Shown here: positions 14,073 to 53,500 of the stretch, in pieces
How positions within the stretch are numbered: position 1 is the first letter of the stretch
Layout: the number at the start of each line of letters is the position of its first letter
Origin: Candidatus Bathyarchaeia archaeon
GTDB lineage: Archaea > Thermoproteota > Bathyarchaeia > Bathyarchaeales > Bathycorpusculaceae
Assembly (NCBI GenBank): GCA_049512935.1
Contig: JBEKWR010000010.1
Span: 26,426 to 90,425 of the forward strand
Length of the DNA stretch: 64,000 bases
Direction of reading: 5' to 3'
Program-made: the position numbers and the translations under genes
The notes under the pieces: generated by a model
The model's database searches: none
Told to the model about the DNA's origin: nothing
What the model saw: the letters and a program-made list of their open reading frames with translations, nothing else

Positions 14073-14461
14073 CCGTTCACGCTGAGGCGGAAATTAACCC
14101 GACGGAGGACGAGGAAAAAGTCAAGGCTGCCGTCTGCAACATGCTGGGGAACCCATCCGTAACCATCGCGTCAGAAGGCAAAGGCAGCGTGTTGACGGCT
14201 GAAGCCTCAGGGCAAGATTCTCTGTTTAAATTTCGAAATCTGCTGCGTAATGACAGGATTCGTGACGCCGCCAGAAAAGCCCTGTTTCACAGTATGCGAG
14301 GAAACACCATCAGCTTCTGCCTAAACAAGCAGGTCGCCTATGCTGGGCACATCAGCTTTTCAGAAGAAACAGCGGAGTCGCCCCTAGGACCCATAAGAGT
14401 AACTATCACCAGTGACAATCCAAGGCACCTAATCGAGTGGCTAGCTGAAAAAACCGCGTAG
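14060..14461 (+). CDS. UPF0201 (DUF54) putative RNA-binding protein
   Basis: INPTEDEEKV, IRDAAR, LNKQVAYAG, SPLGPI. It is the usual partner of UPF0200. Confidence 0.85.
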   Translation: MEQVTVHAEAEINPTEDEEKVKAAVCNMLGNPSVTIASEGKGSVLTAEASGQDSLFKFRNLLRNDRIRDAARKALFHSMRGNTISFCLNKQVAYAGHISFSEETAESPLGPIRVTITSDNPRHLIEWLAEKTA

Positions 14462-14477
14462 GCGAGAAGGGCACGGG

Positions 14478-37365: not shown

Positions 37366-37599
<234 letters not shown>

Positions 37600-37613
37600 G
37601 TTGGGTGCAATAG

Positions 37614-37970
37614 TTGCCTCATTTGCTCATTGACGAGAGCGTAACAAGAGACATCAAGGAATGGCTAAAGAAGCACGGCTTCGATGCAGTAAACGTTTCG
37701 GGTACTAACCTCAAGGGTGCAAATGACCAAGAAATAGCTGATTACGCGGCAAAAAACAATTTGACCATTCTGACGCTTGATACTGACTTTGCGCAAATTT
37801 ATCATAACTCCCCAAAGGGTACGCTTGGCGTCATAGTAATAAGAGTGAGCCACTCAACACCAGCTTCCATCCTCGAAACGCTAACTCGAGCACACCAAAA
37901 AATAAACCTAAAGAAAACGCACAACCAACTAATCATTATAACACAAAGGAAAATACGAATAATCAGTTAG
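37614..37970 (+). CDS. DUF5615 PIN-like toxin (VapC45-like), paired with DUF433
   Basis: LLIDESV, GANDQEI..YA..N..TILTLDTDF, GVIVIR. Confidence 0.85.
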   Translation: MPHLLIDESVTRDIKEWLKKHGFDAVNVSGTNLKGANDQEIADYAAKNNLTILTLDTDFAQIYHNSPKGTLGVIVIRVSHSTPASILETLTRAHQKINLKKTHNQLIIITQRKIRIIS

Positions 37971-38079: not shown

Positions 38080-39783
38080 TTATGCGCTTCGCTGAGAGCT
38101 TCTCCGCTTACTTATTTCCTGAATTAATCCCACTTCTGATTTTTCCAGAATTCGTCTTTCAGAAAGAACCCCCACAATCTTTTCTCCCTGAACTACCACC
38201 AGACGCCTGATTTCGCTGGATTTCATGGTGTTCAAGGCTTCCAGAAGACTATTTTCACTGCTGATAGTGATTAATGGCGCGGACATGATTTCTTCAGCTG
38301 ACGTTTTCACGGGGTCTCGCTGGGTGCCTACTAATCGGTTAAGGACATCCTTCTCTGTTATTATGCCTACAGGCTTTTCGCCCTTGACAACGATAATTGA
38401 ACCGATGTTGTTTGCGAGCATGGAGTCGATAGCTTTAGATGCCGGTGACTCAGCCGATATAGTTATCGGCGGCGACCTCATGGCTGCTTCCACCGTCATA
38501 TCATGGAGGTCAAGGGACCTATTCCATAAATCGTCCAGCAAGTTTCTCATGCTTCTCAAGTAATCAGCGTCGTTAGTGTACAGCAGGTGATCAAAGTATG
38601 CCGAAGGCTCAGTTTTCTTCTTGATTGACAAAGGAGCTTTAAACATGAACATTTGCTTACCATCAACGATTGCTAAGCTTGAGGAAACAGCATCGGAATA
38701 TTTGACCCGATAGTGCTTGGAAAGTGCTTCGGCAGCCTCTAAATTTTCAAAATCAAGTGAAACCAGAACGCGTATTTGGAGTGGTTTGGAAACTTTAGAA
38801 AGAAGATTTGACAACATTGTGGTGAAACCTTTCGAAGTGGAAACGACGATTAGTTCTTCTTTTACTTCGCTTATCGCTTCACAAAACCTTTGATACGCTT
38901 CATCGGCGTCTCTTACAATAACCGTTTCTGAGGTCGACTCGCCAGTTTCAATCTCATTTATTCTTATTCCGAGATCAGTTGCTTCATCCCACGTTCCTTC
39001 AAAGAAGATTTTGAGCGCTGACACAATTTCTCGGCTATTAGTCCAAAGAACTGTTTCCTCTTGATCGGGAGTAGATGACTCCTCTGTCGGTGTCAGGAAA
39101 AAAACGATTTCATCATTATCCCTAATCACAAAACGAGGATATGACTTGGCTCCTAAGTCTTTGTGGCGTCCTTCAATTTCAAAATGCCTGGGCAAGGACT
39201 TCTGCAGAACCGCCTTCACAAATCTATAGTTTTCTCTTTTAATATTTGTCAGAATTCTAAATCTGATGTCATGCTTCTCGGTTAGGTCAAAGACTCCAGC
39301 TTGCTCTGACCTGATGATGCCTATGCTATCAACCATAGCTAGCACCTCCGTGTTCGCATGCTCGATTAACTCTATAATGCGCGAATACAGGTTATCTCTG
39401 CCCCTGATGACTGTAAACTTGGCCTGGTCGGGGGATGGTCTGTCTGGGATTATCGATTCCCAACGTGCTAGCAGCTTGCTTTTCCTAGCTTCAAGTTGAG
39501 TGGTTTCTTCTCTTTTGGCTCTTATCGTCATGTCAAGAAAATGCTCAAACGATACAGGCACGAAGCGTGCTGGGAATTCCAGTGTTGCCTCTGCTAACCC
39601 TCTGCTTTGCAGGACCTGTAAAATACGGTACACCTGCGCCTTATGCATCTTCAGCCGTTTGGAAACCTCACCGGCTCGTTGAACCCCTGTTTTCGCGATG
39701 AATAAATAGACTTCGGCTTCTTTTTCGGTCAAGCCGAAATCTCTGAGAATGGAGACTATTTCGCTTTCGGTCACTATAATCAC
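38080..39783 (-). CDS. TrmB-family regulator with duplicated effector domains and C-terminal CBS pair
   Basis: LRDFGLTEKEAEVYL..VYRIL..LQSRGL..TLEFPARF, two PLD-like TrmB_C units, then GIITEKDV/IRRLVV CBS motifs. Confidence 0.85.
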   Translation of the reverse strand: MIIVTESEIVSILRDFGLTEKEAEVYLFIAKTGVQRAGEVSKRLKMHKAQVYRILQVLQSRGLAEATLEFPARFVPVSFEHFLDMTIRAKREETTQLEARKSKLLARWESIIPDRPSPDQAKFTVIRGRDNLYSRIIELIEHANTEVLAMVDSIGIIRSEQAGVFDLTEKHDIRFRILTNIKRENYRFVKAVLQKSLPRHFEIEGRHKDLGAKSYPRFVIRDNDEIVFFLTPTEESSTPDQEETVLWTNSREIVSALKIFFEGTWDEATDLGIRINEIETGESTSETVIVRDADEAYQRFCEAISEVKEELIVVSTSKGFTTMLSNLLSKVSKPLQIRVLVSLDFENLEAAEALSKHYRVKYSDAVSSSLAIVDGKQMFMFKAPLSIKKKTEPSAYFDHLLYTNDADYLRSMRNLLDDLWNRSLDLHDMTVEAAMRSPPITISAESPASKAIDSMLANNIGSIIVVKGEKPVGIITEKDVLNRLVGTQRDPVKTSAEEIMSAPLITISSENSLLEALNTMKSSEIRRLVVVQGEKIVGVLSERRILEKSEVGLIQEISKRRSSQRSA

Positions 39784-39788
39784 TAACT

Positions 39789-39801
39789 TTTGTGACTGAC
39801 T
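39789..39801. promoter_or_regulatory. Island motif copy 1 (TTTGTGACTGACT) between TATA box and start of TrmB-CBS gene
   Basis: Matches the copies at 41466, 46762 and 49880. Minus-strand TATA TTATAAAA at 39814-39807. Confidence 0.55.
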
Positions 39802-39892
39802 AGTTATTTTATAACACGAAACTAATATGTTTTACTTGAAAATGCGTTGACAAGAAAAGTCTTTTTTTCGTATTTTCGTCGGAGGACACCAT

Positions 39893-40072
39893 ATGACTCT
39901 CTTACAGAATGAGGGTTTCGAGTATATTGAAGAAGATTTGACAGAGGACCGTCAAAAGAAAAGGTTTAGAGGAACATTGGAGCAACAGGAATTAATCCAG
40001 AGCGGAAGCGATTTCTATGAAGTTTTCCTGGCTCGGGATCCTTATAGCGAACTCAGATTCGTAAGGAAATAA
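39893..40072 (+). CDS. 59-aa hypothetical protein (below the ORF-track cut-off)
   Basis: GGAGG SD at 39881, ATG 39893, MTLLQNEGFEYIEEDLTEDRQKKRFRG...FVRK; the stop lies 2 nt before the next ATG. Confidence 0.65.
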   Translation: MTLLQNEGFEYIEEDLTEDRQKKRFRGTLEQQELIQSGSDFYEVFLARDPYSELRFVRK

Positions 40073-40074
40073 AA

Positions 40075-41139
40075 ATGATAGGTGCAGCAAAACCCAATGT
40101 TCTGGTCGTCGGAGCAGGCGCCATAGGCTTAAGCGTTGCGGGTTGGATTTTTCCTTACAACGAAAACCTGCATCTCTTAGCTCGGGGAGAAAGCGTCGAT
40201 GAGATTAAGCGAAATGGATTGTGCCTGCATCAGATAGGTCAGGAACCCAAAGTTGTTAGGATACCTGTAGTCAAGTCTTTAGACGAAATTTCAGTGCCAG
40301 ATGTCATAGTCATTGCGGTGAAAAATTATGACCTCGACCGAGCCGCTTTTGCGCTTCGGCAAGAACTGAAAAACGTTGAACCAATCGTTGTGACCCTTCA
40401 GAATGGCGTAGATAACCAGCAGATACTGCCCAAATATTTTTCGAAAGCATTATTCGGCGTCGTTTGCTACAATGCTTGGCGAGAAGGACCGGGCAAAGTT
40501 GCATATGTGAAGCATGGGCACCTGCTTATAGGGACTCCAACAAATGACTTGCAACAGGAACTTAAAAGCGCTAGAGGCGTCTTCAACAGCGGATTAGACT
40601 GTTTTATCACCGATCGTTTAGAGGATGCGGTTCACTGTAAATTAGCGATTAACCTGATAAACGGGTTGATGGCGTTAGTTGGGTTCCGAAAACGCTCCAT
40701 TGAGTCTGAAAAGATTCTGGTACACATGACCACTAGGCTGCTCTGGGAAGGAGTTCAAGTGCTGCAAGCGGCAGGTTTTAAGGAGCAGGAACTCGGAAGC
40801 ATGCCTTCTTGGAGCGAGATTCAAATGGCTGTCAACATCCCAGAATCACGTGCAAATCCCCTCTACGACTTTATTGTCAACAGGGTAGGACCGACCAGCA
40901 TGACACAGGATGTGTTCGCTGGGAAGAAAACGACTGAGTTGGACTCATTGAACGGGCATATGCTTGAGTTAGCCCAGAGGGTGAGGGTTCCAATGCCGAT
41001 TAACCGAGCTATCTACGAGATTGCTAAGGAACGTTTCTGCCCTGGCTTTGAACCCATTCAAGAAATTGATCTTTGGGAAATGATAAACGAGAGAATTCTG
41101 GACAGCACGAAGATGCTAACTCGAACACTTGCCGCTTAG
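40075..41139 (+). CDS. Ketopantoate reductase (PanE/ApbA) family oxidoreductase
   Basis: VVGAGAIG, IAVKNYD, TLQNGV, KLAIN..N, TSMTQDV..G..TELDSLNG. Confidence 0.85.
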   Translation: MIGAAKPNVLVVGAGAIGLSVAGWIFPYNENLHLLARGESVDEIKRNGLCLHQIGQEPKVVRIPVVKSLDEISVPDVIVIAVKNYDLDRAAFALRQELKNVEPIVVTLQNGVDNQQILPKYFSKALFGVVCYNAWREGPGKVAYVKHGHLLIGTPTNDLQQELKSARGVFNSGLDCFITDRLEDAVHCKLAINLINGLMALVGFRKRSIESEKILVHMTTRLLWEGVQVLQAAGFKEQELGSMPSWSEIQMAVNIPESRANPLYDFIVNRVGPTSMTQDVFAGKKTTELDSLNGHMLELAQRVRVPMPINRAIYEIAKERFCPGFEPIQEIDLWEMINERILDSTKMLTRTLAA

Positions 41140-41205
41140 CACTGATAACGCCTATTACATCCAACTTTTTAGGCTTCTTCGTGTGTACTAGAATTTTGGA
41201 GCTGC

Positions 41206-41391
41206 TTACAGTAGATAGATGATCAAAGCGACTAAGCTTAAGATGCCAATTGCTATGTCTAACCCCATTACCGCTTTCATGATTTTCATAAAAAACTGCA
41301 TGCGTTTAGAGCCGAACCTTATCGCGGCGACGCCAGCGAACATCATAACTGCACTTACCGCCAGCATTCCAAGCGCAAATAACGGAAACAT
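41206..41391 (-). CDS. 61-aa two-helix membrane protein
   Basis: Strong GGAGGTG SD, two hydrophobic helices and its own conserved promoter (41441-41480). Confidence 0.65.
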   Translation of the reverse strand: MFPLFALGMLAVSAVMMFAGVAAIRFGSKRMQFFMKIMKAVMGLDIAIGILSLVALIIYLL

Positions 41392-41440
41392 TGTTGTTTG
41401 CCACCTCCTCTTAAATTGTTTTATTTGTCTGGCTTGAATA

Positions 41441-41480
41441 AGTAGTTAAAATTTAGTTTGGAACATTTGTTACTCACTGC
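41441..41480 (-). promoter_or_regulatory. Conserved island promoter (copy 2)
   Basis: AGTAGTTAAAATTTAGTTTGGAACATTTGTTACTCACTGC is 34/40 identical to 46737-46776. Confidence 0.75.
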
Positions 41481-41609
41481 AAAAATGTTTTTGGGCACTC
41501 AACAGGGCTTTCTGCTTTGTGGGGCGGTCAGTGGTTTGTTGCTTTTGCAATTAACCACATCTTATTAGTGGCCTGCGAAACAAGCATTAGTCGAGAGGTA
41601 TGATGCAGA

Positions 41610-42533
41610 GTGTTCAAATTCGAAAAAGAGCAGCGTGTCCTCGATATTGCTGGAGTTAAAGTGGGCGGTCAACCAGGCGAGTACCCAACAGTCCTTATTC
41701 CCAGCATATTCTACGACGGACACAAAATCGTCAGCGACCCAATCAAGGGTGACTTTGACAGACCGAAAGCTGAAACGCTAATCAACAGGCTGAGTGAACT
41801 CTCTGAAAAAACTGGAAACCAATTTTTCCTCGATGTCGTGGGTAATACGTCCGAAGCGCTGGTCAGGTACGCAGATTTCGTTTCCAATGTGACACAGTCC
41901 CCTTTTCTGGTCGATGGTCCTTCCGAACAAGTTAGAATCCCTGCAATGGAGCGCATAGAGGAAATGGGCCTTATGAACCGAGCCATCTACAATTCAATTG
42001 ATTACCATGCTTCGGACAGAGAGCTGAAATCGCTTAAAGACCTCGGCGTGCAAAACGCTATTGTTATGGCTTTTGACCCGAAGAAGCCTTTGGCTGAGGG
42101 AAGAGTAAGCATCCTTAAGGGTTATTCGGGACAAAGAGGACTCATGAACGCTGCTGAACTGGCAGGCATAAAAAATGTCCTTGTAGACACGGGCGTTCTG
42201 GATGTTCCCAGCATAGGCATAGCAGCTAGGGCGGTGCAGCTTGTCAAGAACGAGTTTGGGCTGCCCACGGGTTGTGCGCCTGCAAACGCAGTGACTGGCT
42301 GGAAAAGGGTTAAGAAAGGCGAGTTCGGACCAGCAGCCTACAGCGTCTGCTTGGGCGGTTCTGTTGTTGTTACGCAAATGTCGGGGGCAAACTTTGTTCT
42401 GCACGGTCCAGTTGAATTTGCTGAGGCTGCTTTTCCAGCGTGCGCGATGACCGACGCGATCATAGCCTACGCGGCGAAGAGACTGGGCACTACGATAAAA
42501 ACGCCGAACCATCCACTCTACAAAATCTTTTAG
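41610..42533 (+). CDS. mtrH: MtrH-family methyl-corrinoid:tetrahydropterin methyltransferase (MT2)
   Basis: MFKFEKEQ..DIAGVKVGGQPGEYPTVL..SIFY.GH, PFLVD, RAIYNSI, LVDT, GLPTGCAPANA, GANFVLHGPVE. No other mtr subunits nearby. Confidence 0.9.
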   Translation: MFKFEKEQRVLDIAGVKVGGQPGEYPTVLIPSIFYDGHKIVSDPIKGDFDRPKAETLINRLSELSEKTGNQFFLDVVGNTSEALVRYADFVSNVTQSPFLVDGPSEQVRIPAMERIEEMGLMNRAIYNSIDYHASDRELKSLKDLGVQNAIVMAFDPKKPLAEGRVSILKGYSGQRGLMNAAELAGIKNVLVDTGVLDVPSIGIAARAVQLVKNEFGLPTGCAPANAVTGWKRVKKGEFGPAAYSVCLGGSVVVTQMSGANFVLHGPVEFAEAAFPACAMTDAIIAYAAKRLGTTIKTPNHPLYKIF

Positions 42534-42558
42534 GCTGTTGAGCTGGTGGGAATCCTAT

Positions 42559-43923
42559 TTAAGGCAAAAAAGAGATTTGCGGGTAGTTTTTTGTGCCTGT
42601 GAAGGTTGCCTGACCTAGGGGTCCCAGTTTCACTGTGCCCGACATTGAGTTGCCGTTGCGCTTCGCGGTGAATTCAAAGGTTATGCGCCGCGGAAATTTT
42701 ATCGATGCTTTCCACGTCATCTGGTCACCATTAATTGTTCCGTCTGAAATGTTGCTGTGACCTGCGCGACTGTCCATCTTGCCCGTGAGTTTGTCGCCGT
42801 CAGTGGAGATATGCAATGTTGCCTTCTGTGTGCCTAGAGGCGTCTTCATTGTGATTTCCCAGGTCTCGGAAACAGCTACGCCTTTGGTTTCTTCAGTAAG
42901 AGTGGGATAAGTTTCATTTTCTGTTTCAGGTGCTTCATTTTTAACCGTTTCAGTCTTTTCTGGTTCCCCAAACAGTGTTGGGTCAACGATGTCCATGCCG
43001 ATGTTTTCGAATGACTCCTTAAAGGCGTCAGGATTGGACTCGGCAGCCTGCAAAGACAACTCGGTCATGCGCGCCATCCGTTCCACCTCGGTTTTTCCTC
43101 GTCGCCAGTAGGCTTGGCATTTGAAATCGCCTTTTTGGAGACCGCGCTCCTCTAAAAGGAACTTGCGTATTTCAGTAACCATCTTCATCTCGCCGCATGC
43201 CCAAACGAAAACCTTTCCCTTTGGCCAATGAAGCTCGCGAATCGCTTTCAGCAGGAGATCGCTTGTGCCCGGTTCTGCGCCGCCCCGATGCAACCACGTC
43301 ACCGTGAGGTCAGCCTTCGTCTCGATGGGCTGTTCTTCGAGCTTGTTAGCGACTTCGAGGAAGGCCATCGCTTTTGTTCCTGATTCTAAGGCTTCAAGGT
43401 CGGTTTGTGCACTGGGAATTGCGGCTTCATCTGCGCAGAGCACAAACACGTCTGCTTGGTGAGCGGTTAACGGGTTATGGCCTGACGGAAGGGAGAACTC
43501 CACTATGCCTAAACGGTCACCCGCTTTTGCGTTGCTAGCCCAATCGCTGGCAAGCCCAGGGACATTATGCAGAGTGAAGTCAACTGTGAGTTCAAGCGCA
43601 TCTGGATTGAATCTGCGTGCAGTAAAAGCCCGAACGAGCGGGTCTTCAGAAAACGCGCTGAAAGAACTGACTTCGGTTTCGGATGTGGTCCTGTATTCTA
43701 CTTCGCCACCCGACGTGAGGAAAGGCTCTGGTGGATTGCTGTGACCCTTTGGGGGAAAATAAAGACGGATGAGCATCTCGGGGCGCCAGTGACCCTTCAA
43801 ACCTTCTAAGGCTACCCCGTGAAGAGTTATTCGCCTTACACAAGGAGTTAACTGCTCGATGCGAGACACCTCGCAGACACCAGCGACATGATATTTTGGT
43901 TCATAATCTATTTTTTCCGTCAC
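42559..43923 (-). CDS. Siderophore-interacting (ViuB-like, FAD-binding) protein fused to a C-terminal beta-rich domain
   Basis: LTPCVRRITL, RAFTARRF, DFTLH..GLASDWA..AKAGD, ADEAAIP, WACGE, YWRRG, plus a ~95-aa WEITMKTPLG...FTGTK domain. Confidence 0.8.
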   Translation of the reverse strand: MTEKIDYEPKYHVAGVCEVSRIEQLTPCVRRITLHGVALEGLKGHWRPEMLIRLYFPPKGHSNPPEPFLTSGGEVEYRTTSETEVSSFSAFSEDPLVRAFTARRFNPDALELTVDFTLHNVPGLASDWASNAKAGDRLGIVEFSLPSGHNPLTAHQADVFVLCADEAAIPSAQTDLEALESGTKAMAFLEVANKLEEQPIETKADLTVTWLHRGGAEPGTSDLLLKAIRELHWPKGKVFVWACGEMKMVTEIRKFLLEERGLQKGDFKCQAYWRRGKTEVERMARMTELSLQAAESNPDAFKESFENIGMDIVDPTLFGEPEKTETVKNEAPETENETYPTLTEETKGVAVSETWEITMKTPLGTQKATLHISTDGDKLTGKMDSRAGHSNISDGTINGDQMTWKASIKFPRRITFEFTAKRNGNSMSGTVKLGPLGQATFTGTKNYPQISFLP

Positions 43924-43936
43924 AAATAATCTCCTC

Positions 43937-45838
43937 CTACAAAATCTTCAACCGCTGCAACTGGTTTTGGACACTGGGATACTTTGCTATGTTTCGATGC
44001 GGAAGGAATACGGAATCCAAGAATTCTTTGCGGAAACAGGGGGCGGTCATGAGCTCAACGTAATTGACGCTTGCTGAAATTCTTTGAGCTTCCTTCCTCG
44101 CTTGCCTGGACAGCAGAGTTATTTTCGCGCCTGAAACAGCAGTGTTGCCGACAAACTCGATTTTCTGGGTAGCCACGTCGGGAATCAAGCCGATGAGCTT
44201 GGCGCTTTCAGGATTCAGGTATTTTCCAAAGGCTCCCGCGATATACACGTGTTCAATGCCAGCCTCAACCACGTTCCTTTTGTTCATGAGAACTGTGGCG
44301 CCCGTGTGGAGCGCCGCCTTCGCCAGCTGCATCTCTTGGATGTCTCTTCGGCTGATTGTTATGTCGCTGCCCAAAATGGTCTCATTTTTCCAAGCTACGA
44401 CGAATTTCGTTTCCCCGTTGACTGCGCGAAGGCGTTTTGATTCAAGATTCTTGTTAAAGTCTCCACGCTGGTTAATTACTCCGCACCTGAACATTTCGGC
44501 AACGGCATCGACGACTCCTGAACCGCATATCCCAACAGGTTTGCCGTCGTCAATGGCCACGAATTCTACATCCAACGTTTCAGCGTCAATCTTCACCCGC
44601 TCGATAGCTCCCGTGCCCGCTTTCATTCCGTACTCAATGTGCATGCCCTCAAACGCTGGACCAGCAGCGCATGAGCAAGCAACAATACTCTGCTTGTTTC
44701 CCACAAAAACCTCGCCGTTCGTTCCTATATCCATAAGAAGGCACACTTTACTCATTTTATGCATCCCTGTTGCCAGAACGTCTGCGACAGCGTCTGCCCC
44801 GACAAAGCCAGCTATATTGGGCAAAACATGAACGTTGCCTGATGGGTTGGCGGTGATTTCCAAAGATGCCGCTTTAACGTTCACCGCTTTCTTTATCGCT
44901 GGCACGTAGGGTGCAAAAAGAAGGTTTTTGGGTTGAATTCCGAGGAAGAAGTGATGCATCGCCGTGTTCCCAACGACCGTGACTTCGTAGACATCCCGCG
45001 TGTTGACGTTGCTTTCTTGGCATGCATCAACAATTAAGGAGTTGATTGTTTCGATTAGTGCCTGATGGAGTTCTTTGAAGTTTTCGTCGTTGGCTTGAGC
45101 ATAAGTTATTCTTGAGATTACATCTTCCCCGTGGGCTAACTGCGGGTTTTCCGCAGACTTGACCGCAACTGTTTTTCCTGAAGTTAAGTCCACGAGGTAC
45201 CCAACAATTTTTGAAGTGCCAATGTCCACTGAAAAGCCGAATTCATTTTTCTCTGTATTCCCATGTTCAACTGAAACTATTTTCTCGTCATTCCAAACAG
45301 TTGCCGTAACCTTCCATTCTGCCTCTCTCAAAACATTTGGCAACGTTTGAAGCAGCTCGTAGTCAATCTCCAAATCGGCAAATCCTCTTTTCTGCAACGA
45401 TTCAAGAAGCCTCTCAAAATCGGGCTGCACATCAACGATTGTGGGCTTTTGCAGTTCCAAGTAGAGCTTTCTTACTGCAGGGTTCAGTTTTACATGTTGC
45501 TCCGCTCCTTGTGCTTGGATTTTTCTTTTTCCTGTTCTGCTTTCAGAAGGCACCATCACCAAGAGGTTGCCTTGAACGCGTGTGCAACATGCAAGTCTGA
45601 GACCATCAGTCAATTCAGACGACGAAAGATACTTCTGTTCCGCAGCGGTGACTCCGCTAACCTCGGCATGATTCTTGATAATTACACGGCACTTACCGCA
45701 AGAACCTTCGCCGCCACAGTCAGAGCGTATGCCAACTCCCGTCTCTTTAGCTGCCTCAAGCACGGTTGCGTCTGGCTTGAAAGTTAATCTCTTGCCTTCT
45801 GGCTGAAAACAAATTTCAATTCCTTTTTCCATCATCAT
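43937..45838 (-). CDS. ASKHA-type reductive activator of corrinoid proteins (RACE/RACo) with N-terminal 2Fe-2S domain
   Basis: CGGEGSCGKC..RLACC, DIGTS, NPQ..HGEDVISR, GFVGAD, DIGTNGE, CAAGPAFEG, GICGSG, AGAFG. Confidence 0.92.
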   Translation of the reverse strand: MMMEKGIEICFQPEGKRLTFKPDATVLEAAKETGVGIRSDCGGEGSCGKCRVIIKNHAEVSGVTAAEQKYLSSSELTDGLRLACCTRVQGNLLVMVPSESRTGKRKIQAQGAEQHVKLNPAVRKLYLELQKPTIVDVQPDFERLLESLQKRGFADLEIDYELLQTLPNVLREAEWKVTATVWNDEKIVSVEHGNTEKNEFGFSVDIGTSKIVGYLVDLTSGKTVAVKSAENPQLAHGEDVISRITYAQANDENFKELHQALIETINSLIVDACQESNVNTRDVYEVTVVGNTAMHHFFLGIQPKNLLFAPYVPAIKKAVNVKAASLEITANPSGNVHVLPNIAGFVGADAVADVLATGMHKMSKVCLLMDIGTNGEVFVGNKQSIVACSCAAGPAFEGMHIEYGMKAGTGAIERVKIDAETLDVEFVAIDDGKPVGICGSGVVDAVAEMFRCGVINQRGDFNKNLESKRLRAVNGETKFVVAWKNETILGSDITISRRDIQEMQLAKAALHTGATVLMNKRNVVEAGIEHVYIAGAFGKYLNPESAKLIGLIPDVATQKIEFVGNTAVSGAKITLLSRQARKEAQRISASVNYVELMTAPCFRKEFLDSVFLPHRNIAKYPSVQNQLQRLKIL

Positions 45839-45892
45839 ACCTGACCGTGTTTAACCTGTGAGAGGTTAACATCCAGCTTTAGCTGTCTTTGA

Positions 45893-46219
45893 TTATAGTT
45901 TTGCAAGTATCTGGTTTTCAGGTCGAACCAAAATCAGGCCTTTTTCCATATCAGCGCTGCGTATCTTGTACATGTTCTCGTGTGGGAGCCCGTTTTCTTT
46001 CGGTAGACCCTTTGCCCATCTGGCTTCTACGACTCCGTTAAACCTTAGGTGCTTCTGAGTTATGTGAGAGGTGAATTCGACAGATACCGTGTCGCCGACT
46101 TCGTATTTGAACTGAGAGACCGGGTTGCTTTCGCATAGAGCGGCACTTTCCATGGTTTGGTACGTGTTTCCACACTTTTCACATTGATAAGATGGCGTTG
46201 GGGTATCTATTTTCTTCAC
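45893..46219 (-). CDS. Small hypothetical protein, N-terminal CxxC zinc-finger-like plus SH3-like domain
   Basis: YQCEKCGNTY...ALCE followed by FKYEVGDTVSV. It sits inside the operon. Confidence 0.6.
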   Translation of the reverse strand: MKKIDTPTPSYQCEKCGNTYQTMESAALCESNPVSQFKYEVGDTVSVEFTSHITQKHLRFNGVVEARWAKGLPKENGLPHENMYKIRSADMEKGLILVRPENQILAKL

Positions 46220-46323
46220 GAGTCTTCAACCCTCTGCATTACTCAAATTTTCCTTAATGCTCGCATTGTAGATGTCACATAAGCCCTGAATTGTCCGAGG
46301 TAAGTTGCTGCTTTGTGCTCTTG

Positions 46324-46680
46324 CTAACCGATTGCTGGCAACAACTTAAACAGCGCTGCAATGTCTCCGTGAATTTTAATCAAGTTGTTACCCATTGCTT
46401 CCATAGGGTTGACTGATCCATCGAGGAAGCCCTTCATGGTTTCCACGTTATCGGCGGTCACAGTAGCTGCCGCGTCTTTTAAGTTAATTTGTGACGCGGG
46501 AACTCTTTCGCTTGTCACGGTTCCATCCATCGCAAATTTCAATCGGTAACCGACGCCGATGTCGGTGAAAACTTGTTGAACCATCTTACCCCAGCCAGAT
46601 GTCAAGCTTTTGTTTTCATTGAGCTTTTGCACCATGGTTTTCATGACTTCGTCGGCCATCTGTTCTTTGTTTTGAGCCAT
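46324..46680 (-). CDS. SCP2 sterol/lipid-binding domain protein
   Basis: AAATVTAD..TMKGFLDGSVNPMEAMGNNLIKIHGDIAALFKL is the SCP2 C-terminal pattern. GAGGTGG SD. Confidence 0.8.
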   Translation of the reverse strand: MAQNKEQMADEVMKTMVQKLNENKSLTSGWGKMVQQVFTDIGVGYRLKFAMDGTVTSERVPASQINLKDAAATVTADNVETMKGFLDGSVNPMEAMGNNLIKIHGDIAALFKLLPAIG

Positions 46681-46736
46681 TCTTTTCCACCTCAAACCTT
46701 GCCTTCAGTTTAGATGTTGCTTGTTTAGCTTCGTTT

Positions 46737-46776
46737 AGTAGTTAAGTTCTAGTTTGGAACATTTGTAACTGACTCC
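46737..46776 (-). promoter_or_regulatory. Conserved island promoter (copy 3)
   Basis: AGTAGTTAAGTTCTAGTTTGGAACATTTGTAACTGACTCC, upstream of the SCP2-RACE-SIP operon. Confidence 0.75.
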
Positions 46777-46832
46777 AGAAAACAATAGTGCGGGCGGCAT
46801 CATCATTTTGACGGTCGCGTGGTAAGGTGATT

Positions 46833-47717
46833 TCAGACTATTGCATCTAAACTTCTTGATTCTTTCCAGACTAAATCGAAGAGGATGCTGAATGCGTTAA
46901 CCAGTTCCTTGTTGTTGGTTAACATAGCTTTTCGCTTGTGCCCACGCGGATCCTTTGAAACTATCAGGATGAGTTCTTCTTTATCTCTCAGCACGAAGCT
47001 TGGAAAAACGTTTAGATCCAAATCTGCACACCGAAACTCCACGTTCTTGGTGTTGCTCAATCCCTTGAAAAGCGCACGAAGATACTGCCTATTCCCCTCG
47101 GAAATTACGCTAAGGATTCTGTGCTTGACTCCACGATTAGCGTTGATCTTCGTTAACCGAATGTTCTCTTTCACGTCCGGGGCGTTTGACCAATCTTCAG
47201 TTAATGTTTCAAGCTCCCTTTTTGCATTTTTGATGCTTTCTTTGGCTTTTGAATAAATGCGGTTTGAATCTTCTACAACATCGAAGCTTTCTGTCATAAG
47301 CGGAATTTCAGCGTACTTAATCGCTTTCAAAGTGTTCAATAAGTTTTGCCGACTGTTCTCCAGCATCATAACGTCGGCCCTTTTGGATTCAACGATTGAA
47401 TCAGCGACTCGTTCAATTGAGTTAGCCGAAAAATACGCGGGAGTTTCAATCGAAGATTCGACAATACCTCTTTTTTGCAGGTTTCTTAAATGTCGATAAA
47501 CTTGAACTTTGTTTACGTTCATCATTTGGCATATTTCTCTTGCTTTCTGCGGACCTGCCTTCAACAAGAAAAGGTATATTTTCGCCTCTTGTTCAGAAAA
47601 GCCCCATTCAAGAAGTTCAGTCAATGCTTTGTCCTTGTCTGGCGAATTTTTACCTAACAGTGGACCGCTTGCATATGGGACAAGAGGTCTTTTGGCTGAT
47701 ATGTTCTTCACCACCAT
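46833..47717 (-). CDS. TrmB-family transcriptional regulator
   Basis: LLEWGFSEQEAKIYLFLLKAG..VYRHLRNLQKRGIVESSIETPAYF and a PLD-like effector domain (FVLRDKEE). Confidence 0.88.
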   Translation of the reverse strand: MVVKNISAKRPLVPYASGPLLGKNSPDKDKALTELLEWGFSEQEAKIYLFLLKAGPQKAREICQMMNVNKVQVYRHLRNLQKRGIVESSIETPAYFSANSIERVADSIVESKRADVMMLENSRQNLLNTLKAIKYAEIPLMTESFDVVEDSNRIYSKAKESIKNAKRELETLTEDWSNAPDVKENIRLTKINANRGVKHRILSVISEGNRQYLRALFKGLSNTKNVEFRCADLDLNVFPSFVLRDKEELILIVSKDPRGHKRKAMLTNNKELVNAFSILFDLVWKESRSLDAIV

Positions 47718-47920
47718 CTACAAGTGTCTAAATGCTTTGAACGCTCTATCTATATATGATTAACTAGTTTCAGCTTTTTCAATAAGTAATAGACTTATTG
47801 CTTTTCCTAAAACAACTAATGTCCTGCAATCTTTCGGGATTCCAAAGAAAGAAAAGATGGTTTTTTTATGTAGCGTGAACTGAGTTATTGGCGAAGGGCA
47901 AAGGTAGTTTTTTCAAAATC

Positions 47921-48580
47921 CTATTTTCCTCTCAGCTTCTTCATGAGCGCCTCTGTTTTCTTTAGAGCGTCCATTGCGTCCTCACCCGAGGTGTCCGCTC
48001 CAAAACCCTTTGCCACATCTTCTGTGAATCCCCAGCCCCCGCAAATCAACCCGGTTTTCTCCCTGATGCCTGCTTTTCTCATCTCGTCGTCAAGGTCCCT
48101 CACTCGGAATTTCGTAGCGCCAAGAATAGCTGAGGCGCCGATGATGTCAGCCTTCAACTCTATTGCCTTGTCAACGAAGTTTTTGGCGGGTTGATCAATG
48201 CCTATGTCAGTCACTTCGAACCCTGCTCCACAAAGCATCGATATGACGATGTTTTTGCCGATGTCATGAAGGTCTCCTTCGACGGTGCCGATCACAACTT
48301 TACCAGCGACAGCAGCCTTTTCCGATTTCAATAACGGCTGGATAATGTCCATAACGGATTTGGTTACGTCTCCCACCAATATTAGGTCTGTTAGGAAGAA
48401 TTCGTTCTTTGCATATTTTTCGCCTGCCACAGTTAATCCAGGATGCAGACCTTTCATGAGAATATCGTAGGGAGCGACCTTCATGTCCAGCGCCGTATGT
48501 GTCAACTCGCACGCCAACTCCTCGTTTTCGTCGATCACTGCTTGCTTGAGCTGCTCAAAAATTTCCTCCTTGGTAGTCAA
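47921..48580 (-). CDS. Methyltransferase cognate corrinoid protein
   Basis: Four-helix cap, GTVEGDLHDIGKNIV (DxHxxG), GASA, CGG. Confidence 0.93.
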   Translation of the reverse strand: MTTKEEIFEQLKQAVIDENEELACELTHTALDMKVAPYDILMKGLHPGLTVAGEKYAKNEFFLTDLILVGDVTKSVMDIIQPLLKSEKAAVAGKVVIGTVEGDLHDIGKNIVISMLCGAGFEVTDIGIDQPAKNFVDKAIELKADIIGASAILGATKFRVRDLDDEMRKAGIREKTGLICGGWGFTEDVAKGFGADTSGEDAMDALKKTEALMKKLRGK

Positions 48581-48615
48581 ATTTTGTTTTCCTCCATGTC
48601 TCCAATTGTAACTTC

Positions 48616-49830
48616 CTACAGGTTTATGGGGTATTTCCCAAATTGCTTCACGTCTTTCACGAAGGCCTCAACGTTCTGAGGAGGAGTCCAATAATCTATC
48701 GCGCCGACCGCCATGCCGAATCCGACGCCCGGAGTCGAAGTGCCAATCTTAATGTGTTGCTTGACTGTCGCTTCTAAAGTCGGCAAATCTGTCAGAACCG
48801 CTTTATCGGGCTCACAGCAAATATACGCTTTGTTCAACCCCTTCGTGAATTTCCTGCAGAATTCCACATCGGTGTCCGTAGTGAACTCCAAGAATTTGCA
48901 AGAGTCATATCCACCTGCGTCAGCCATGATCTGCACATGGGTCTCTTGATTCGCAGCGTAAATCCATCCGTCTAAGGGACCGCGTTTAGCCAGTTCAGCG
49001 GCGAAGGGAGCAATTTGTTCCTTGAACACGCTTGGAGGCCAAGCTGAATGATGCTGGCAACACCATACGATGTCCGCTCCCGCTTCTCTAAGTGCTTTAG
49101 CGTACGATATTTCGAAGTCAGTTGTTTTCCTAATCAGTTTCTGCCACATGGGAATGTTCTTGATTGGGTCAAGGAAGCCAGCTTTGAGTCCTCGCACAGA
49201 TTCCGCAACGATCCATTCCGCTGGAGTGCAAACAGAAGCACCAACTGGCACCGTGTCGCCAAGTCCATACTTCTTGAAAGCCTCTTTCATTTGATGTATC
49301 ATCCACAGCATGCCAGGATAGGCGCCGTCTTTTCTGGGGTCGGGAACCACTAACCTGTCTGCGTCTTCAAGAGTTTTAACCCCGCTTTCGATCATAACGG
49401 GATGAGCACGCTCCAGATATTTTGCCTTGCCGCCCCACTCAGACTCGCCGTAACTGTAGCTGTAAATCTGAGGCACGAACACACCGAACCTCGCGACGCT
49501 TGCCAAGTGGGCTTTCAAGAACAGCTTGGGATGTTTAAAAGAGTCTATCGGCTTCACAGCGTCCGCGTAACCGTCGAGCGCTTTGATAGAATAAGTTGTT
49601 TCAGGATGAATTTGCACATGCACCATGTCGACTTCTTGACCTGCTACCATGGCGTTCCAGCGTTCCCAAGGTGTCATCTTGTCTTTCTCAATATTCTGCT
49701 TAATTTTCTGACAGTACCTTTCTATTTCAAGCTCTTCTTCCTCTGAAAATGGGAAGTCAAGCTCAGTCCAGGGCGTATTAAACCATTTAGGTGCGTCTTC
49801 CATATGTCCCCAATTAACCATCATAACCAC
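48616..49830 (-). CDS. Uroporphyrinogen-decarboxylase-fold methyltransferase (putative substrate:corrinoid MT1)
   Basis: MTPWERW, PDPRKDGAYP, AGADIVW and C-terminal TPPQNVEAFVKDVKQFGKY; directly upstream of the corrinoid gene. Confidence 0.8.
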   Translation of the reverse strand: MVMMVNWGHMEDAPKWFNTPWTELDFPFSEEEELEIERYCQKIKQNIEKDKMTPWERWNAMVAGQEVDMVHVQIHPETTYSIKALDGYADAVKPIDSFKHPKLFLKAHLASVARFGVFVPQIYSYSYGESEWGGKAKYLERAHPVMIESGVKTLEDADRLVVPDPRKDGAYPGMLWMIHQMKEAFKKYGLGDTVPVGASVCTPAEWIVAESVRGLKAGFLDPIKNIPMWQKLIRKTTDFEISYAKALREAGADIVWCCQHHSAWPPSVFKEQIAPFAAELAKRGPLDGWIYAANQETHVQIMADAGGYDSCKFLEFTTDTDVEFCRKFTKGLNKAYICCEPDKAVLTDLPTLEATVKQHIKIGTSTPGVGFGMAVGAIDYWTPPQNVEAFVKDVKQFGKYPINL

Positions 49831-49854: not shown

Positions 49855-49894
49855 GTTATTTAAGTTGTAGGAATTTACTTTTGTAACTAACTGA
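49855..49894 (-). promoter_or_regulatory. Conserved island promoter (copy 4)
   Basis: GTTATTTAAGTTGTAGGAATTTACTTTTGTAACTAACTGA has the same TTAA..TAG...AC.TTTGTAACT.ACT spacing as copies 2 and 3. Confidence 0.65.
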
Positions 49895-50035
49895 TTTCGG
49901 CAAAAACCTATGCGCTCACAGTCAATAAGTCGAAGACTTTGCCAGAACTGATTATAGTTTCAAGAGCAAATAAACCCAAGCCCAGCATGAAACCCGCCCA
50001 TAACCGACAATACAGTCAACATGGAGTCAACATTG

Positions 50036-50161
50036 AAAGTCGCATCCCGCCAAAGCGAAAGTCGCAACCCGCAAAAAGCTTCAAGTCCCAAACCAAAAAA
50101 GCAACCCAAAACACAAAGAGCCAAGCCTGAAAGTCGCAACTTTCCCGTAGCAAAAGTCGCA
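50036..50161 (+). repeat. Four AAAGTCGCA direct repeats in two pairs
   Basis: Starts at 50036, 50058, 50130 and 50153. Confidence 0.75.
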
Positions 50162-50344
50162 ACTTAAATTTTTCCAGAAAAACCAACTCCTGAGAGTCAG
50201 CCATAAAAAGCTCTTTTCACACAAAAAATCCTATTTCAAGCATCTTTCGCGTTTTTCTTCATTCAACGGCAACTTCCAAAACATTTTTTCGACCAAAACC
50301 CCAACGAAACTTTAACCCGCCTTCATTTATGCCCTAATATGCAT

Positions 50345-50510: not shown

Positions 50511-53500
50511 ATGACCGCAACCATCCAAAAAGAAGACATCCACGATTTACTAAAAACCTTTTTCCACGAAAAAGGACTAGTCAGGCAGCACCTTGACAGC
50601 TACAACGAATTCATCGACCACGGACTACAAGAAGTCGTAGATGAAGTTGCGGAAATCCCAATCGAAGTCCCAGAAAGCCCCTACAAAGTCAAACTCGGAC
50701 AAATCTGGGTAATCGATCCGCAATCACGCATCACGGGACCATACGTCACCGAAGTAGACGGGACAAAACACGAAATCTACCCCATGGAAGCCCGACTCAG
50801 AAACCTCGCGTACTCAGCCCCAATCGCGCTGGAAATGACCCCGGTCATAGACGGCAGAGAACAAGACACCGAACTCGTCTTCATCGGCAACATCCCCGTC
50901 ATGCTTAAATCCAAACTCTGCTTCCTCTCACAACTCTCACGAGAAGAACTCATCGCGGCAGGCGAAGACCCAGACGACCAAGGCGGATACTTCATCGTCA
51001 ACGGCTCCGAACGCGTAATCGTCGCCATGGAAGACCTAGCGCCAAACCGCGTAATAGTCGACATAGACGAGAAAGGCACATCACCAGTTTACCAAGCCAA
51101 AATCTTCTCAACCACCGTAGGCTTCAGAGCAAGAATCGAACTTAAACTCAAGTCAGACGACGCAATCTACGTCACCATGCCAGGTGTCCCAACAGAAATC
51201 CCATTCGTCGTCATCATGCGCGCGCTTAGCTTGGAAAAAGACAAAGACATCGCAGAGGCAGTTTCGCTTGAAGGCGACATCCAAAGCCAACTAGCCGCTT
51301 CATTCGAAAAAGCCATCGGCGTAGACACGCCAGCTGACGCAGTGCTTTTCATCGGTAACCGTGTAGCCCACGGGCAAGTTGAAGAGTACAGGCTCCAGAA
51401 AGCCGAAACCGCCCTTGACAAGAACTTTCTGCCGCACCTTGGCAGAAGCGAAAAGAACCGCAAGGAAAAAGCGATTTTCCTAGGCGAAATGGCTTACCGC
51501 GTTCTGCAGTTGAAAACTGGTAAAAGGCAACCAGACGATAAAGACCACTTCAAAAACAAGCGACTTCGCCTCGGCGGACCGCTTCTCGCAGACCTTTTCC
51601 GTGTTTCATTCAGAAACTTGACAAGGGACATAAAGTACCAGCTTGAACGCATCGGCGTCAAAGGCCCAATCATAACCGTTTCAGCCGCCGTTCGCCCAGG
51701 CATAATCACCGAACGTTTCCAGCATGCGTTGGCAACGGGCAACTGGGGAAGAGGAAGAGTAGGCATCACACAGCTTCTTGACCGCACAAACTACATTTCA
51801 ACGCTTAGCCACCTGCGCAGGCTCCAATCGCCGCTGAGCAGAAGCCAACCTAACTTCGAAGCCCGAGACTTGCACCCGACACACTGGGGACGCCTATGTC
51901 CGAACGAGACGCCTGAAGGCTCAAACTGCGGTCTCGTCAAGAACCTGGCGTTGTCAGCCTCAATCGCCGTCGGCGTGAACCCTGACAGGGTTAAGCAGTT
52001 GCTTTTCGAGATGGGCACTGTGCCCGCCGCCGAAGTCCCCAACGAACTGCGTCTTTCAGGAGCTAAAGTTTTCGTTGATGGAAACATTATTGGCTACTGC
52101 AATAACGCGGCGGAGATCGCGAAGGTTTTCCGCGAGAAACGTAGAGCGGGGGAGATCTCAACTGAAGCTAACGTAACATACTTCTCTAAGCTGCAGACTG
52201 AAGCTGAAGAGTTGCACGCTAACTGTGACGAGGGCCGAGTCAGGCGCCCGCTCATAATCGTCGAGAATGGCGCTCCGAAGCTTCAGCCGAAACACTTGGA
52301 AAAAATCGGTTTAGGCGAGTGGACTTGGGAGGACATTGTCAAGAACGGGTTGATCGAATATTTGGACGCTGAAGAGGAAGAAAACGCTTACATCGCCCTG
52401 TCCTTCGACCAGATTCAGCCTGACAACACGCATGTTGAAATCGCCACTTACACGATCCTTGGCATATGCGCGTCAACCATCCCATATCCTGAGCATAACC
52501 AGTCTCCACGCAACTCTTACCAGGCAGCGATGGCTAAGCAGGCTTTAGGTGTTTACGGCACTAACTTCCATCACCGCGTTGACTCGCGTTCGCACATTCT
52601 GCATTACCCGCAGGTTCCGATGGTTGAAACTGAATTGATGGAGGTTATGGGTTACAAACAGCGTCCGACAGGACAGAACTGTGTCGTCGCCGTGCTGAGC
52701 TTTGAAGGCTACAACATGGAGGACGCTCTCATCTTCAACAAGGCATCCGTCGAACGGGGCTTGGCGCGTTCAACTTTCTACCGTATTTACGAGGCTGAAT
52801 GCCGTCAGTATCTGGGTGGCTTGAAGGACAAGTTTACAGTTCCAGAGCCGGGAACCCGAGGTTACCGTGGCGAACAGTATTACAGGCTTCTTGAGCCCGA
52901 CGGGATAATTAGCCTTGAATCGCAGGTTGTCGGCGGAGATGTATTGATTGGAAGAATTAGCCCTCCAAGGTTCCTGGAAGAGTACAAGGAGTTCGAAGTT
53001 AAAGGGCCGTCGATGCGTGACACGTCAGTTGACATGCGTCCGTCTGAAACGGGGATTGTGGACGGGATATTCATTACGATGTCGGGCGAAGGCAGTCAGC
53101 TTGTGAAGGTGAGGGTTCGTGATCAACGTGTTCCTGAGTTAGGGGACAAATTTGCTTCGCGTCACGGTCAGAAAGGTGTTATCGGCTTGATTGTTCCGCA
53201 GGAAGACTTGCCCTTCACGGACGAAGGCATTGTGCCCGACCTCATAATTAACCCACATGCAATTCCGTCAAGAATGACCATTGGTCAGTTCATCGAGTCG
53301 CTCGCTGGAAAAGCGGCGGCGGCAAGGGGCAGACCAGCGGATGGCACACCATTCAGTAACGAGGGACCCGACGAGGTGCGTAAGAGCCTTGTTAAGTTAG
53401 GTTTCAGCCACACGGGTGGCGAAGTTTTCTATAACGGCACCACAGGCGAGAAGTTCGTCGCAGACGTGTTCGTTGGCGTAGTGTACTACCAGAAACTCCA

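Follow-up and report, generated by a model that had tools for sequence, protein, structure and literature searches.

A mobile corrinoid demethylation island with a conserved SCP2-like companion protein in a Bathyarchaeia genome from peat

We analysed a 64,000-nt stretch of the genome of Candidatus Bathyarchaeia archaeon (assembly GCA_049512935.1, contig JBEKWR010000010.1, positions 26,426 to 90,425; the window hereafter) and found that it carries a complete, mobile corrinoid demethylation island at ~38.0–50.0 kb. The host is a Bathyarchaeia metagenome-assembled genome (MAG) from peat, 2.3 Mb in size and 93% complete. Taken jointly with the mechanism proposed below, we lean, by a modest balance, towards reading the segment as an accessory, horizontally moving island of ~12 kb with a complete four-component corrinoid methyl-transfer system. 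We infer a hydrophobic methyl donor as its substrate, with peat-derived methoxylated aromatics as the likeliest candidates.

Results of the open reading frame (ORF) listing and of the Pfam and NCBIfam scans showed that all genes of an earlier note on this DNA are present at the coordinates it gave (Table 1). By domain tests the system has all four components: a substrate:corrinoid methyltransferase with the URO-D fold (MT1), a corrinoid protein, a pterin methyltransferase of the MtrH type (MT2) and a RACo activase. The note had compared this arrangement with MtoABCD-type O-demethylases, and the four-part layout is indeed theirs (PMC8630106, in the part of the paper used here). Its second comparison, with the Mtg system of Bathyarchaeia, did not hold: MtgB is a protein of ~300 aa without homology to known MT1s, in a system with no activase, as far as the consulted part of PMC10989822 describes it, whereas the island MT1, set against MtgB by that published description, has 404 aa and the URO-D fold and is accompanied by RACo. 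The corrinoid protein displays a DxHxxG motif in its translation, is MtgC/pyl_corrinoid-like at scores under the NCBIfam equivalog cut-offs and is 89–92% identical in three related Bathyarchaeia loci (L006–L008). MtrH exceeded the cut-off of TIGR01114 (298.3 vs. 271.4 bits) and reached 320 bits with the MtgA model, below its cut-off of 550. For RACo, PF14574, PF17651, PF17650 and PF00111 all scored above cut-off, the plant-type [2Fe-2S] ferredoxin Cys motif was visible in the translation, and the AcsV-like score of 543.7 bits was under the cut-off of 800.

A scan of the genome collection returned 14 loci related to the MT1 locus. Three came from other Bathyarchaeia (L006–L008; MT1 identity 82–95%), one from Candidatus Atabeyarchaeum deiterrae (L009; 73%) and ten from bacteria (30–33%), namely Desulfosarcina, Chloroflexota/Dehalococcoidia and Desulfonema. 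Nine genes follow each other in an identical order in all three Bathyarchaeia loci: MT1, corrinoid protein, TrmB regulator, SCP2-like protein, a 108-aa CxxC protein (orf108), RACo, a SIP-type flavoprotein (SIP), MtrH and a 61-aa protein; the flanks vary. Because the same nine genes recur in the same order on three other Bathyarchaeia contigs, the cluster is not a chance grouping. MT1, RACo, SCP2, SIP and orf108 are each single-copy in the window genome. The order is MT1, corrinoid protein, orf108, GcvH, MtrH, SCP2 in Atabeyarchaeum and MT1, corrinoid protein, SCP2, GcvH, MtrH, FadL/TodX-like gene in Desulfosarcina. GcvH-type lipoyl proteins were seen within the MT1 clusters of four loci from Atabeyarchaeum, Chloroflexota and Desulfosarcina (L009:12430-12939, L010:9471-9917, L011:14230-14769 and L012:12756-13226), and the Desulfosarcina loci also hold pairs of a FAD-oxidase (GlcD-like) and a CCG-domain protein (GlcF/HdrD-like; L010:6687-9458 and 11958-14627, L012:6622-9300). 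GcvH and the GlcD/GlcF-like CCG genes are absent from the Bathyarchaeia islands.

The comparison also divided the accessory genes that the earlier note had grouped with the demethylation system. The TrmB regulator, SCP2 and orf108 are parts of it; SIP is an add-on of narrow distribution, TrmB-CBS is specific to this genome, and PanE and the 59-aa ORF fall away. PanE, the 59-aa ORF and TrmB-CBS were rejected as conserved parts of the system, as orthologues were found in none of the 14 related loci; for the 59-aa ORF no homologue was detected in any fetched locus. The PanE protein exceeded the cut-off of TIGR00745 (163.3 vs. 141.35 bits), with every equivalog model below cut-off. Homologues of it were seen in 9 of 400 other Bathyarchaeia genomes, in no case next to methyltransferase parts, and a paralogue, 53% identical, lies on contig C9 of the window genome. 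Judging by this distribution, PanE is insertion cargo in the window genome only and not part of the conserved system; TrmB-CBS, by the same comparison, is inside the inserted segment and specific to the window genome. Two small frames overlap at 41206–41391. The minus-strand frame, of 61 aa, is the conserved one, since it is 75–84% identical in L006–L008 vs. 57–63% for the overlapping plus-strand frame.

The insertion has a DUF433/PIN pair (to 37970) on its left and the conserved leader of rpoB on its right; this leader is common to the window and to a related genome (G016) from ~50050 onward. The usual order in the same genus is M3 peptidase, DNA methylase and then rpoB ~1 kb on, and the window has ~12 kb extra at this place. 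In G016 the island is found on a different contig, where it adjoins an integrase-like ORF scoring below Pfam cut-offs, and the genome's own rpoB site is empty. MT1 is present in 1 of 24 other same-genus genomes and in 3 of 41 relatives overall, the window genome (G000) included. The island DNA was also detected in three sequencing runs from three other studies (two peat, one wetland) at 0.80–0.95 of the sampled words, and the sequencing-run word search listed no RNA runs with the DNA region 41200–49830. Att-like repeats were looked for at the island ends, with no convincing flanking direct repeat found.

The fold of the SCP2-like protein was assigned because its Atabeyarchaeum orthologue (L009:14135-14494) scores 38.7 bits to PF02036 and a profile of eight homologues (A2) matched SCP2 structures in PDB over positions 11–114 (2ksh, E 3.2e-5; 1c44, E 1.8e-4). 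Of the 14 MT1 loci, 7 encode an SCP2 homologue, among them that of Atabeyarchaeum and three from Desulfosarcina; four of the seven loci without one are at most 7.1 kb long or end within 2.4 kb of MT1. SCP2 is thus a genuine and conserved partner of MT1 in Bathyarchaeia as well as in an Asgard archaeon and Desulfosarcina. The earlier note had looked to SCP2 and SIP together as markers of such neighbourhoods, and only the former is conserved, SIP being confined to the closest islands. The conservation of SCP2 with MT1 across these groups makes a hydrophobic substrate a reasonable inference, and we propose that the SCP2-like protein may act as a carrier for it. A search of full-text literature gave nothing relevant that pairs SCP2 or sterol carrier proteins with corrinoid methyltransferases or O-demethylases.

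A profile search of 400 other Bathyarchaeia genomes yielded 13 further SCP2 copies in four of them (nine in G412, two in G410 and one each in G388 and G142). Of these 13, nine are at most 2.2 kb away from a corrinoid-protein gene, and eight at most 2.2 kb from a 420-aa URO-D MT1. In the usual paralogue cassette TrmB, SCP2 and the 61-aa protein are read in one direction, and the corrinoid protein and MT1 diverge from them in the other. Three such cassettes stand in tandem in G410 (G410:C3:1-20000). The cassettes of G412 (on G412:C1 in several places) and G410, two same-genus genomes (L034–L042), form a large, separately regulated methyltransferase repertoire of this Bathyarchaeia genus. Complex prediction for MT1 with SCP2 gave a score of 0.57, vs. 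0.01 for the best of three controls, with contacts agreeing to at least 93% between runs and a partner predicted local distance difference test score (pLDDT) of at least 83. Of 80 solved complexes, 58 attained the mark used, and so did 2 of 110 mismatched pairs; scores of 0.60 or below came from only 7 of the 80 solved complexes and from both mismatches.

These linkages bear on a plainer account, by which the island encodes a common O-demethylase of the MtoABCD type that acts on soluble methoxybenzoates or guaiacols, and SCP2, orf108, SIP and the small membrane protein are uninvolved neighbours. We regard it as unlikely. The layout equals that of Mto (PMC8630106, part consulted), the habitat is peat and wetland, SIP is dispensable (its gene is a pseudogene in L008) and SCP2 is missing in L011, all of which fit such an enzyme; yet SCP2 stays with MT1 over three phyla despite a changing neighbourhood, its independent paralogues keep close to corrinoid-protein genes in 9 of 13 cases, and a shared promoter element links the SCP2 operon, MT1 and the membrane-protein gene.

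MT1 itself, the true start of which is probably Met4, belongs to a rare family. A profile built on it (A1) matched MtaA (4ay7, E 7.5e-10) and URO-D structures in PDB, but with 24.0 bits vs. a cut-off of 235.4 it is not a member of the MtaA/CmuA family TIGR01463, and an NCBIfam scan of ten MT1-family representatives gave sub-threshold MtaA/CmuA matches or none. In the alignment to 4ay7 the HxC...C zinc ligands of MtaA are lacking, the ‘LHICG’ and ‘PGCG’ positions being AANQE-like and non-Cys. An exhaustive HMMER search of 1.84e9 representatives returned 143 matches at E≤1e-3, 49 at ≤1e-10 and 19 at ≤1e-30. None of the homologues found with the protein (21 matches) or with a 15-row alignment (20 matches) came from Methermicoccus, Moorella, Acetobacterium or Archaeoglobus. 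Searches of PDB with A1, A4 and a paralogue matched no O-demethylase or CdmB chain, in a copy that may predate 9RUI and is therefore silent on kinship.

The lack of the zinc motif is shared with CdmB, a zinc-free URO-D-type enzyme that is described as guiding its substrate through hydrophobic tunnels and has homologues reported in Asgard archaea (PMC13222342, part consulted). A halomethane methyltransferase like CdmBCA, acting on chloromethane or another haloalkane, with SCP2 and the hydrophobic features serving a volatile apolar substrate, is nevertheless improbable in our view. Our searches gave no relation to CdmB, with the PDB copy possibly lacking 9RUI, and a large number of paralogous cassettes with separate regulation suits a range of substrates better than a single gas.

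For the phylogeny of MT1 we computed a quick maximum-likelihood tree of 140 rows (LG+G4, SH-aLRT support only, midpoint root), from which 32 of 140 newly listed representatives (P0027–P0166) were left out for length. The window clade of nine rows (support 99) joins three representatives, and this group has as its sister (support 96) a bacterial clade of 21 rows. The Bathyarchaeia cassette enzymes of 420 aa form a clade of their own with 15 rows (support 100), and 83 rows are MtaA/UroD-like. In the MT1 superclade (57 rows), 45 of the 52 rows without TGA have Cys at the position of Cys258, vs. 2 of 83 MtaA/UroD-like rows. By group, the counts are 9/9 in the window clade, 2/3 in the three sister representatives, 15/16 in the bacterial rows, 14/15 in the 420-aa clade and 5/9 in the remaining superclade rows. 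All five selenocysteine (Sec)-form rows of the superclade have a TGA codon in this column.

Seven bacterial homologues from Chloroflexota, Desulfosarcina and Desulfonema carry a single in-frame TGA exactly at the Cys258 column (L015:174-1421; L017:488-1735; L014:12095-13348 and 15554-16807; L012:18944-20191, minus strand; L018:9167-10399; L010:15014-16264). Of six that were folded, four show an 8–9 bp hairpin with a GUU loop ~15 nt downstream, with differing stem sequences. Rfam gave no family at gathering score in the six bacterial TGA-form loci, and the reading of a selenocysteine insertion element rests on the hairpins alone. SelA is present in all three genomes with TGA forms; in the window genome a single 20-bit match below the family cut-off was obtained, and none was found in Atabeyarchaeum. 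Cys258 aligns to the MtaA barrel strand at ‘DVIAIAD’, and in the URO-D fold the ends of the barrel strands would line the active cavity. We propose that Cys258 is a functionally essential active-site residue, and the TGA-form homologues constitute a candidate selenoprotein family. The main text of a selenoproteome review (2026), in the part consulted, has no ‘uroporphyrinogen’ or ‘URO-D’ entry.

Such a signature would also suit an enzyme that demethylates methylated sulfur or selenium compounds, or a different thiol/selenol redox reaction, in which Cys258 or Sec would be catalytic and kept reduced by GcvH in bacteria or by SIP in the island. Besides the Cys/Sec signature itself, GcvH adjoining the cluster in four loci (L009, L010, L011, L012) and the FAD-oxidase/CCG-domain pairs in L010 and L012 speak for this possibility. 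Known methylthiol methyltransferases, however, use a zinc site that the island MT1 lacks, the Bathyarchaeia islands are without GcvH or CCG genes, and what speaks for a redox step is indirect; we consider this explanation decidedly unlikely.

Both domains of the SIP protein scored above cut-off, and its gene starts 13 nt past the RACo stop. The protein received no NCBIfam name, and its C-terminal ~170 aa have no Pfam family. This part was modelled as an eight-stranded all-beta barrel (pLDDT 79.5), for which Foldseek found a weak likeness to small-ligand barrels (best E 1.1e-3 with a Cap15 barrel; also fatty-acid-binding proteins) that can serve as a lead only. Its look-alikes in the Atlas are stand-alone or fused to P450 or CMD proteins. 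SIP was seen only in the closest islands, as two intact copies and one pseudogene, and in none of the 400 other Bathyarchaeia genomes sampled; from this distribution it is taken as a lineage-specific add-on and not a defining part. The Fer2 domain of RACo resembles those of the FNR-fused reductases NqrF, BenC and GbcB. Because of this resemblance and the 13-nt adjacency we propose that electrons may pass from NAD(P)H via SIP-FAD and the [2Fe-2S] centre of RACo to Co(II).

Regulation of the island appears to be shared between its transcription units. A 61-nt direct repeat (79% identical) precedes the 61-aa gene and the SCP2 operon, and the TTTGTWACTNACT core, allowing one mismatch at most, occurs four times in the 64-kb window (39789, 41466, 46762, 49880), each time in an intergenic region of the island. 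This compares with 0.47 expected, and 1 of 100 shuffles reached four. In L006–L008 the core is retained at unchanged offsets ahead of MT1, SCP2 and the 61-aa gene; the paralogous cassettes lack it. The TrmB regulator has orthologues in L006–L008 and paralogues, 37–40% identical, in sister cassettes. This pattern fits a putative cassette-specific TrmB operator. The copy at 39789–39801 has one mismatch and adjoins TrmB-CBS, and may tie this genome-specific gene into the regulon.

As for where the methyl group goes, the window genome contains Mch and CdhC, while McrA and MTHFR were not found in the 93% complete MAG. On these grounds tetrahydromethanopterin (H4MPT) is the likely methyl acceptor and CODH/ACS a likely sink, as proposed likewise for Ca. 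B. ligniniphilus (PMC10989822, part consulted). A second methyl-transfer locus was noticed at a contig end (G000:C13:56232-58036; L055:7237-9037). It encodes a B12-binding protein of 142 aa, an MtrH of 303 aa and a membrane protein with DUF1616, has radical SAM genes and two large ORFs lacking Pfam matches on its flanks, and resembles the published Bathyarchaeia MtgC/MtgA neighbourhood, in the Mtg style.

The mechanism that we favour would run as follows. The substrate would enter without a dedicated transporter, be picked up by the SCP2-like protein, perhaps at the membrane beside the 61-aa protein, and be passed to MT1, which would move its methyl group onto Co(I) of the corrinoid protein. 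The MtrH-type MT2 would hand the methyl group to H4MPT, from where it would enter CODH/ACS or be oxidised. RACo would spend ATP to re-reduce accidentally oxidised Co(II), SIP would feed NAD(P)H electrons to its [2Fe-2S] domain, and the TrmB regulator would turn on the transcription units via the shared motif. A Pfam scan showed no transporter gene in the island, and a FadL/TodX-type outer-membrane gene lies downstream of the Desulfosarcina cluster. Hydrophobic methoxylated aromatics are favoured because of the peat habitat, the paralogue-rich and separately regulated cassettes, SCP2, and FadL/TodX in Desulfosarcina. The opposite, biosynthetic direction, with a lipophilic acceptor held by SCP2 and methylated from methyl-H4MPT, seems very improbable: corrinoid methyl transfers are reversible in principle, and a lipid-like partner is what SCP2 and the membrane protein suggest, but an accessory gene set (1 of 24 same-genus genomes) that is mobile and multiplied into regulator-equipped cassettes has the pattern of substrate-specific catabolism.

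Several observations weigh against the demethylation of a hydrophobic donor as drawn here. The window SCP2 copy alone is under the Pfam cut-off, and neither the 21-kb Chloroflexota locus L011 nor the Dehalococcoidia contigs encode it, so that SCP2 is not obligatory for the MT1 family; the predicted complex lends weak support to MT1–SCP2 binding. In L008/G016 the SIP gene (L053:11364-12356) is decaying, fragmented over several frames with residues ~45–172 missing, and it is missing from all non-Bathyarchaeia loci, hence SIP cannot be essential; no SIP–RACo pairing was seen elsewhere. The Cys/Sec signature lies outside the accepted Co(I) nucleophile mechanism, and together with the GcvH and CCG neighbours it hints at a thiol redox chemistry that the favoured mechanism does not use. 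Finally, URO-D-superfamily methyltransferases include the O-demethylases MtvB, OdmB, VdmB and MtoB as well as the haloalkane enzymes CdmB, CmuA and MecE/C (PMC13222342, part consulted), and because both kinds share the fold the substrate cannot be read from it; many clades of these enzymes have unknown substrates (same source).

A bolder proposal would take up the signature, and we offer it tentatively, thinking it likelier to fail than to stand. MT1s of the URO-D fold with the Cys/Sec signature, together with SCP2, would form an unrecognised class for membrane-partitioned hydrophobic donors. SCP2 would dock as a delivery subunit, and the Cys/Sec would be catalytic, as nucleophile or in redox, served by lipoyl-GcvH in bacteria or by NAD(P)H and SIP in Bathyarchaeia. 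The class would move among Bathyarchaeia, Asgard archaea and sulfate reducers of anoxic soils and sediments.

Peat and wetland soils harbour Bathyarchaeia and Asgard archaea in abundance, and what becomes of methyl groups in these soils controls acetate and methane precursors. The island represents a mobile demethylation module common to two archaeal phyla (73% MT1 identity between Bathyarchaeia and Atabeyarchaeum) and related to modules of sulfate reducers. If SCP2 delivers the substrate, anaerobic demethylation may reach poorly soluble, membrane-bound molecules such as lignin fragments, methoxylated lipids and pollutants. The Cys/selenocysteine clade supplies a concrete residue to mutate. 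To our knowledge, the physiological electron donor of corrinoid activases is an open question, which the route from NAD(P)H via SIP to RACo, if true, would address.

Table 1. Genes and regulatory elements of the island, in window coordinates.
Feature	Position	Strand	Basis
MT1, URO-D-fold substrate:corrinoid methyltransferase, 404 aa	48616-49830	-	PF01208, E 1.1e-13, 51.3 bits (cut-off 23.9)
Corrinoid (B12-binding) protein	47921-48580	-	PF02310 + PF02607
TrmB-family regulator	46833-47717	-	PF01978, E 4.5e-15
SCP2-like small protein	46324-46695	-	weak Pfam match, 17.8 bits (cut-off 21.3)
orf108, 108-aa CxxC protein: zinc-knuckle-like motif + SH3/chromo-barrel-like domain	45893-46219	-	
RACo-type activase with N-terminal [2Fe-2S] domain	43937-45838	-	RACo_C_ter, Raco_middle, RACo_linker, Fer2
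SIP-type FAD/NAD(P)H flavoprotein with C-terminal beta-barrel	42559-43923	-	PF08021 FAD_binding_9, 78.3 bits + PF04954 SIP, 113 bits
MT2, stand-alone MtrH/MtgA-like methyl-corrinoid:pterin methyltransferase	41610-42533	+	PF02007, E 5e-92, 308.6 bits
61-aa protein, two predicted membrane helices	41206-41391	-	conservation and hydrophobic sequence
PanE/ApbA-family reductase	40075-41139	+	TIGR00745
59-aa ORF directly upstream of PanE, possibly not a gene	39893-40072	+	no homologue
TrmB-CBS: TrmB helix-turn-helix + TrmB effector domain + 2 CBS	38080-39783	-	Pfam
Putative promoter/operator element, copy 1, upstream of 61-aa gene	41425-41485	-	61-nt repeat with TTTGTWACTNACT
Putative promoter/operator element, copy 2, upstream of SCP2 operon	46721-46781	-	61-nt direct repeat
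TTTGTWACTNACT motif upstream of MT1	49880-49892	-	

Among the smaller genes of Table 1, orf108 has orthologues in L006–L009, with invariant C13, C16, C29, H52 and H80 and an N-terminal C-x2-C...C arrangement. Its model (pLDDT 82.8) consists of a short zinc-knuckle-like hairpin and a helix, followed by an SH3/chromo-barrel-like domain. The best fold match was the MRG15 chromo domain at a borderline Z of 8.8, and a Foldseek search returned nothing at E≤0.001. By language-model features, the closest Atlas clusters (scores 0.95–0.97) are without names and partly viral (Uroviricota). The 61-aa protein is conserved beside SCP2 in several cassettes, and in two cassettes of L042 its copies are 47–49 nt from SCP2.

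Around the insertion site, the DUF433 + DUF5615/PIN-like pair (37372–37970) at the left edge is probably a toxin-antitoxin system; in the empty site of G016 DUF433 is kept and a PIN match was not found. An N6/N4 DNA methylase (36415–37296) directly upstream of the insertion site stands beside rpoB in most same-genus genomes. On the right, AAAGTCGCAAC repeats at 50032–50163 were considered as island ends and rejected, as they also occur in the empty site of G016. A 15-nt repeat of the (A)AAGTCGCAAC type is present there in four copies (50032–50163), upstream of rpoB. Because related copies occur in the G016 empty site, these 15-nt repeats are assigned to the region upstream of rpoB rather than to the island. 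The G016 site additionally has a long tandem repeat of the CCTTGTCCTT type. Both polymerase genes beyond are unsplit: RpoB (50511–53879) has 1122 aa, and RpoA (53882–57721; 1279 aa) carries Rpb1 domains 1–5 in one ORF (A′ and A″ fused).

Parts of the island can be compared with known systems at the level of single proteins. In ubiquinone synthesis, UbiJ/UbiT are small SCP2 proteins that present a hydrophobic substrate to soluble modifying enzymes; the island SCP2 is like them at the fold level, while the enzymes and the pathway differ. In the reactivation of methionine synthase, NADPH electrons restore Co(I) via FNR-type flavoproteins (flavodoxin/Fpr in E. coli, MTRR in human). In the island the electrons would instead go to the [2Fe-2S] domain of an ATP-driven RACo, the flavoprotein belongs to the SIP subfamily and has an added beta-barrel, and the link is drawn from gene adjacency.

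As whole systems, three published ones come into question, each known to us from part of its paper. The MtoABCD system of Methermicoccus shengliensis is alike in its URO-D-superfamily MT1, a corrinoid protein of ~22 kDa, a RACo-type activase, an MtrH-type MT2 that methylates a pterin and not coenzyme M, a regulator in the cluster and horizontal acquisition (PMC8630106). The island differs from it by having no MFS/efflux transporters and by the extra SCP2, orf108, SIP fusion and 61-aa membrane protein; its MT1 of 404 aa stands against an MtoB of 47–48 kDa, the two being compared by description only, and the consulted part of the paper makes no mention of a Cys/Sec signature for Mto (PMC8630106). 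CdmBCA of Acetobacterium dehalogenans shares a zinc-free URO-D-superfamily methyltransferase as hydrophobic substrate guide, a corrinoid protein and a pterin MT2. It is set apart from the island, by description, through an MtqA-like MT2 and tetrahydrofolate, with no SCP2 mentioned in the part consulted (PMC13222342). The MtgABC lignin O-demethylase is alike in belonging to Bathyarchaeia, in the families of its MT2 and corrinoid protein, in H4MPT as acceptor and in a membrane protein in the cluster, whereas its MtgB, of ~300 aa, is vertically inherited and comes with no activase; ‘bacterial-type’ systems, the island's kind, were counted in 31 of 297 MAGs (PMC10989822).

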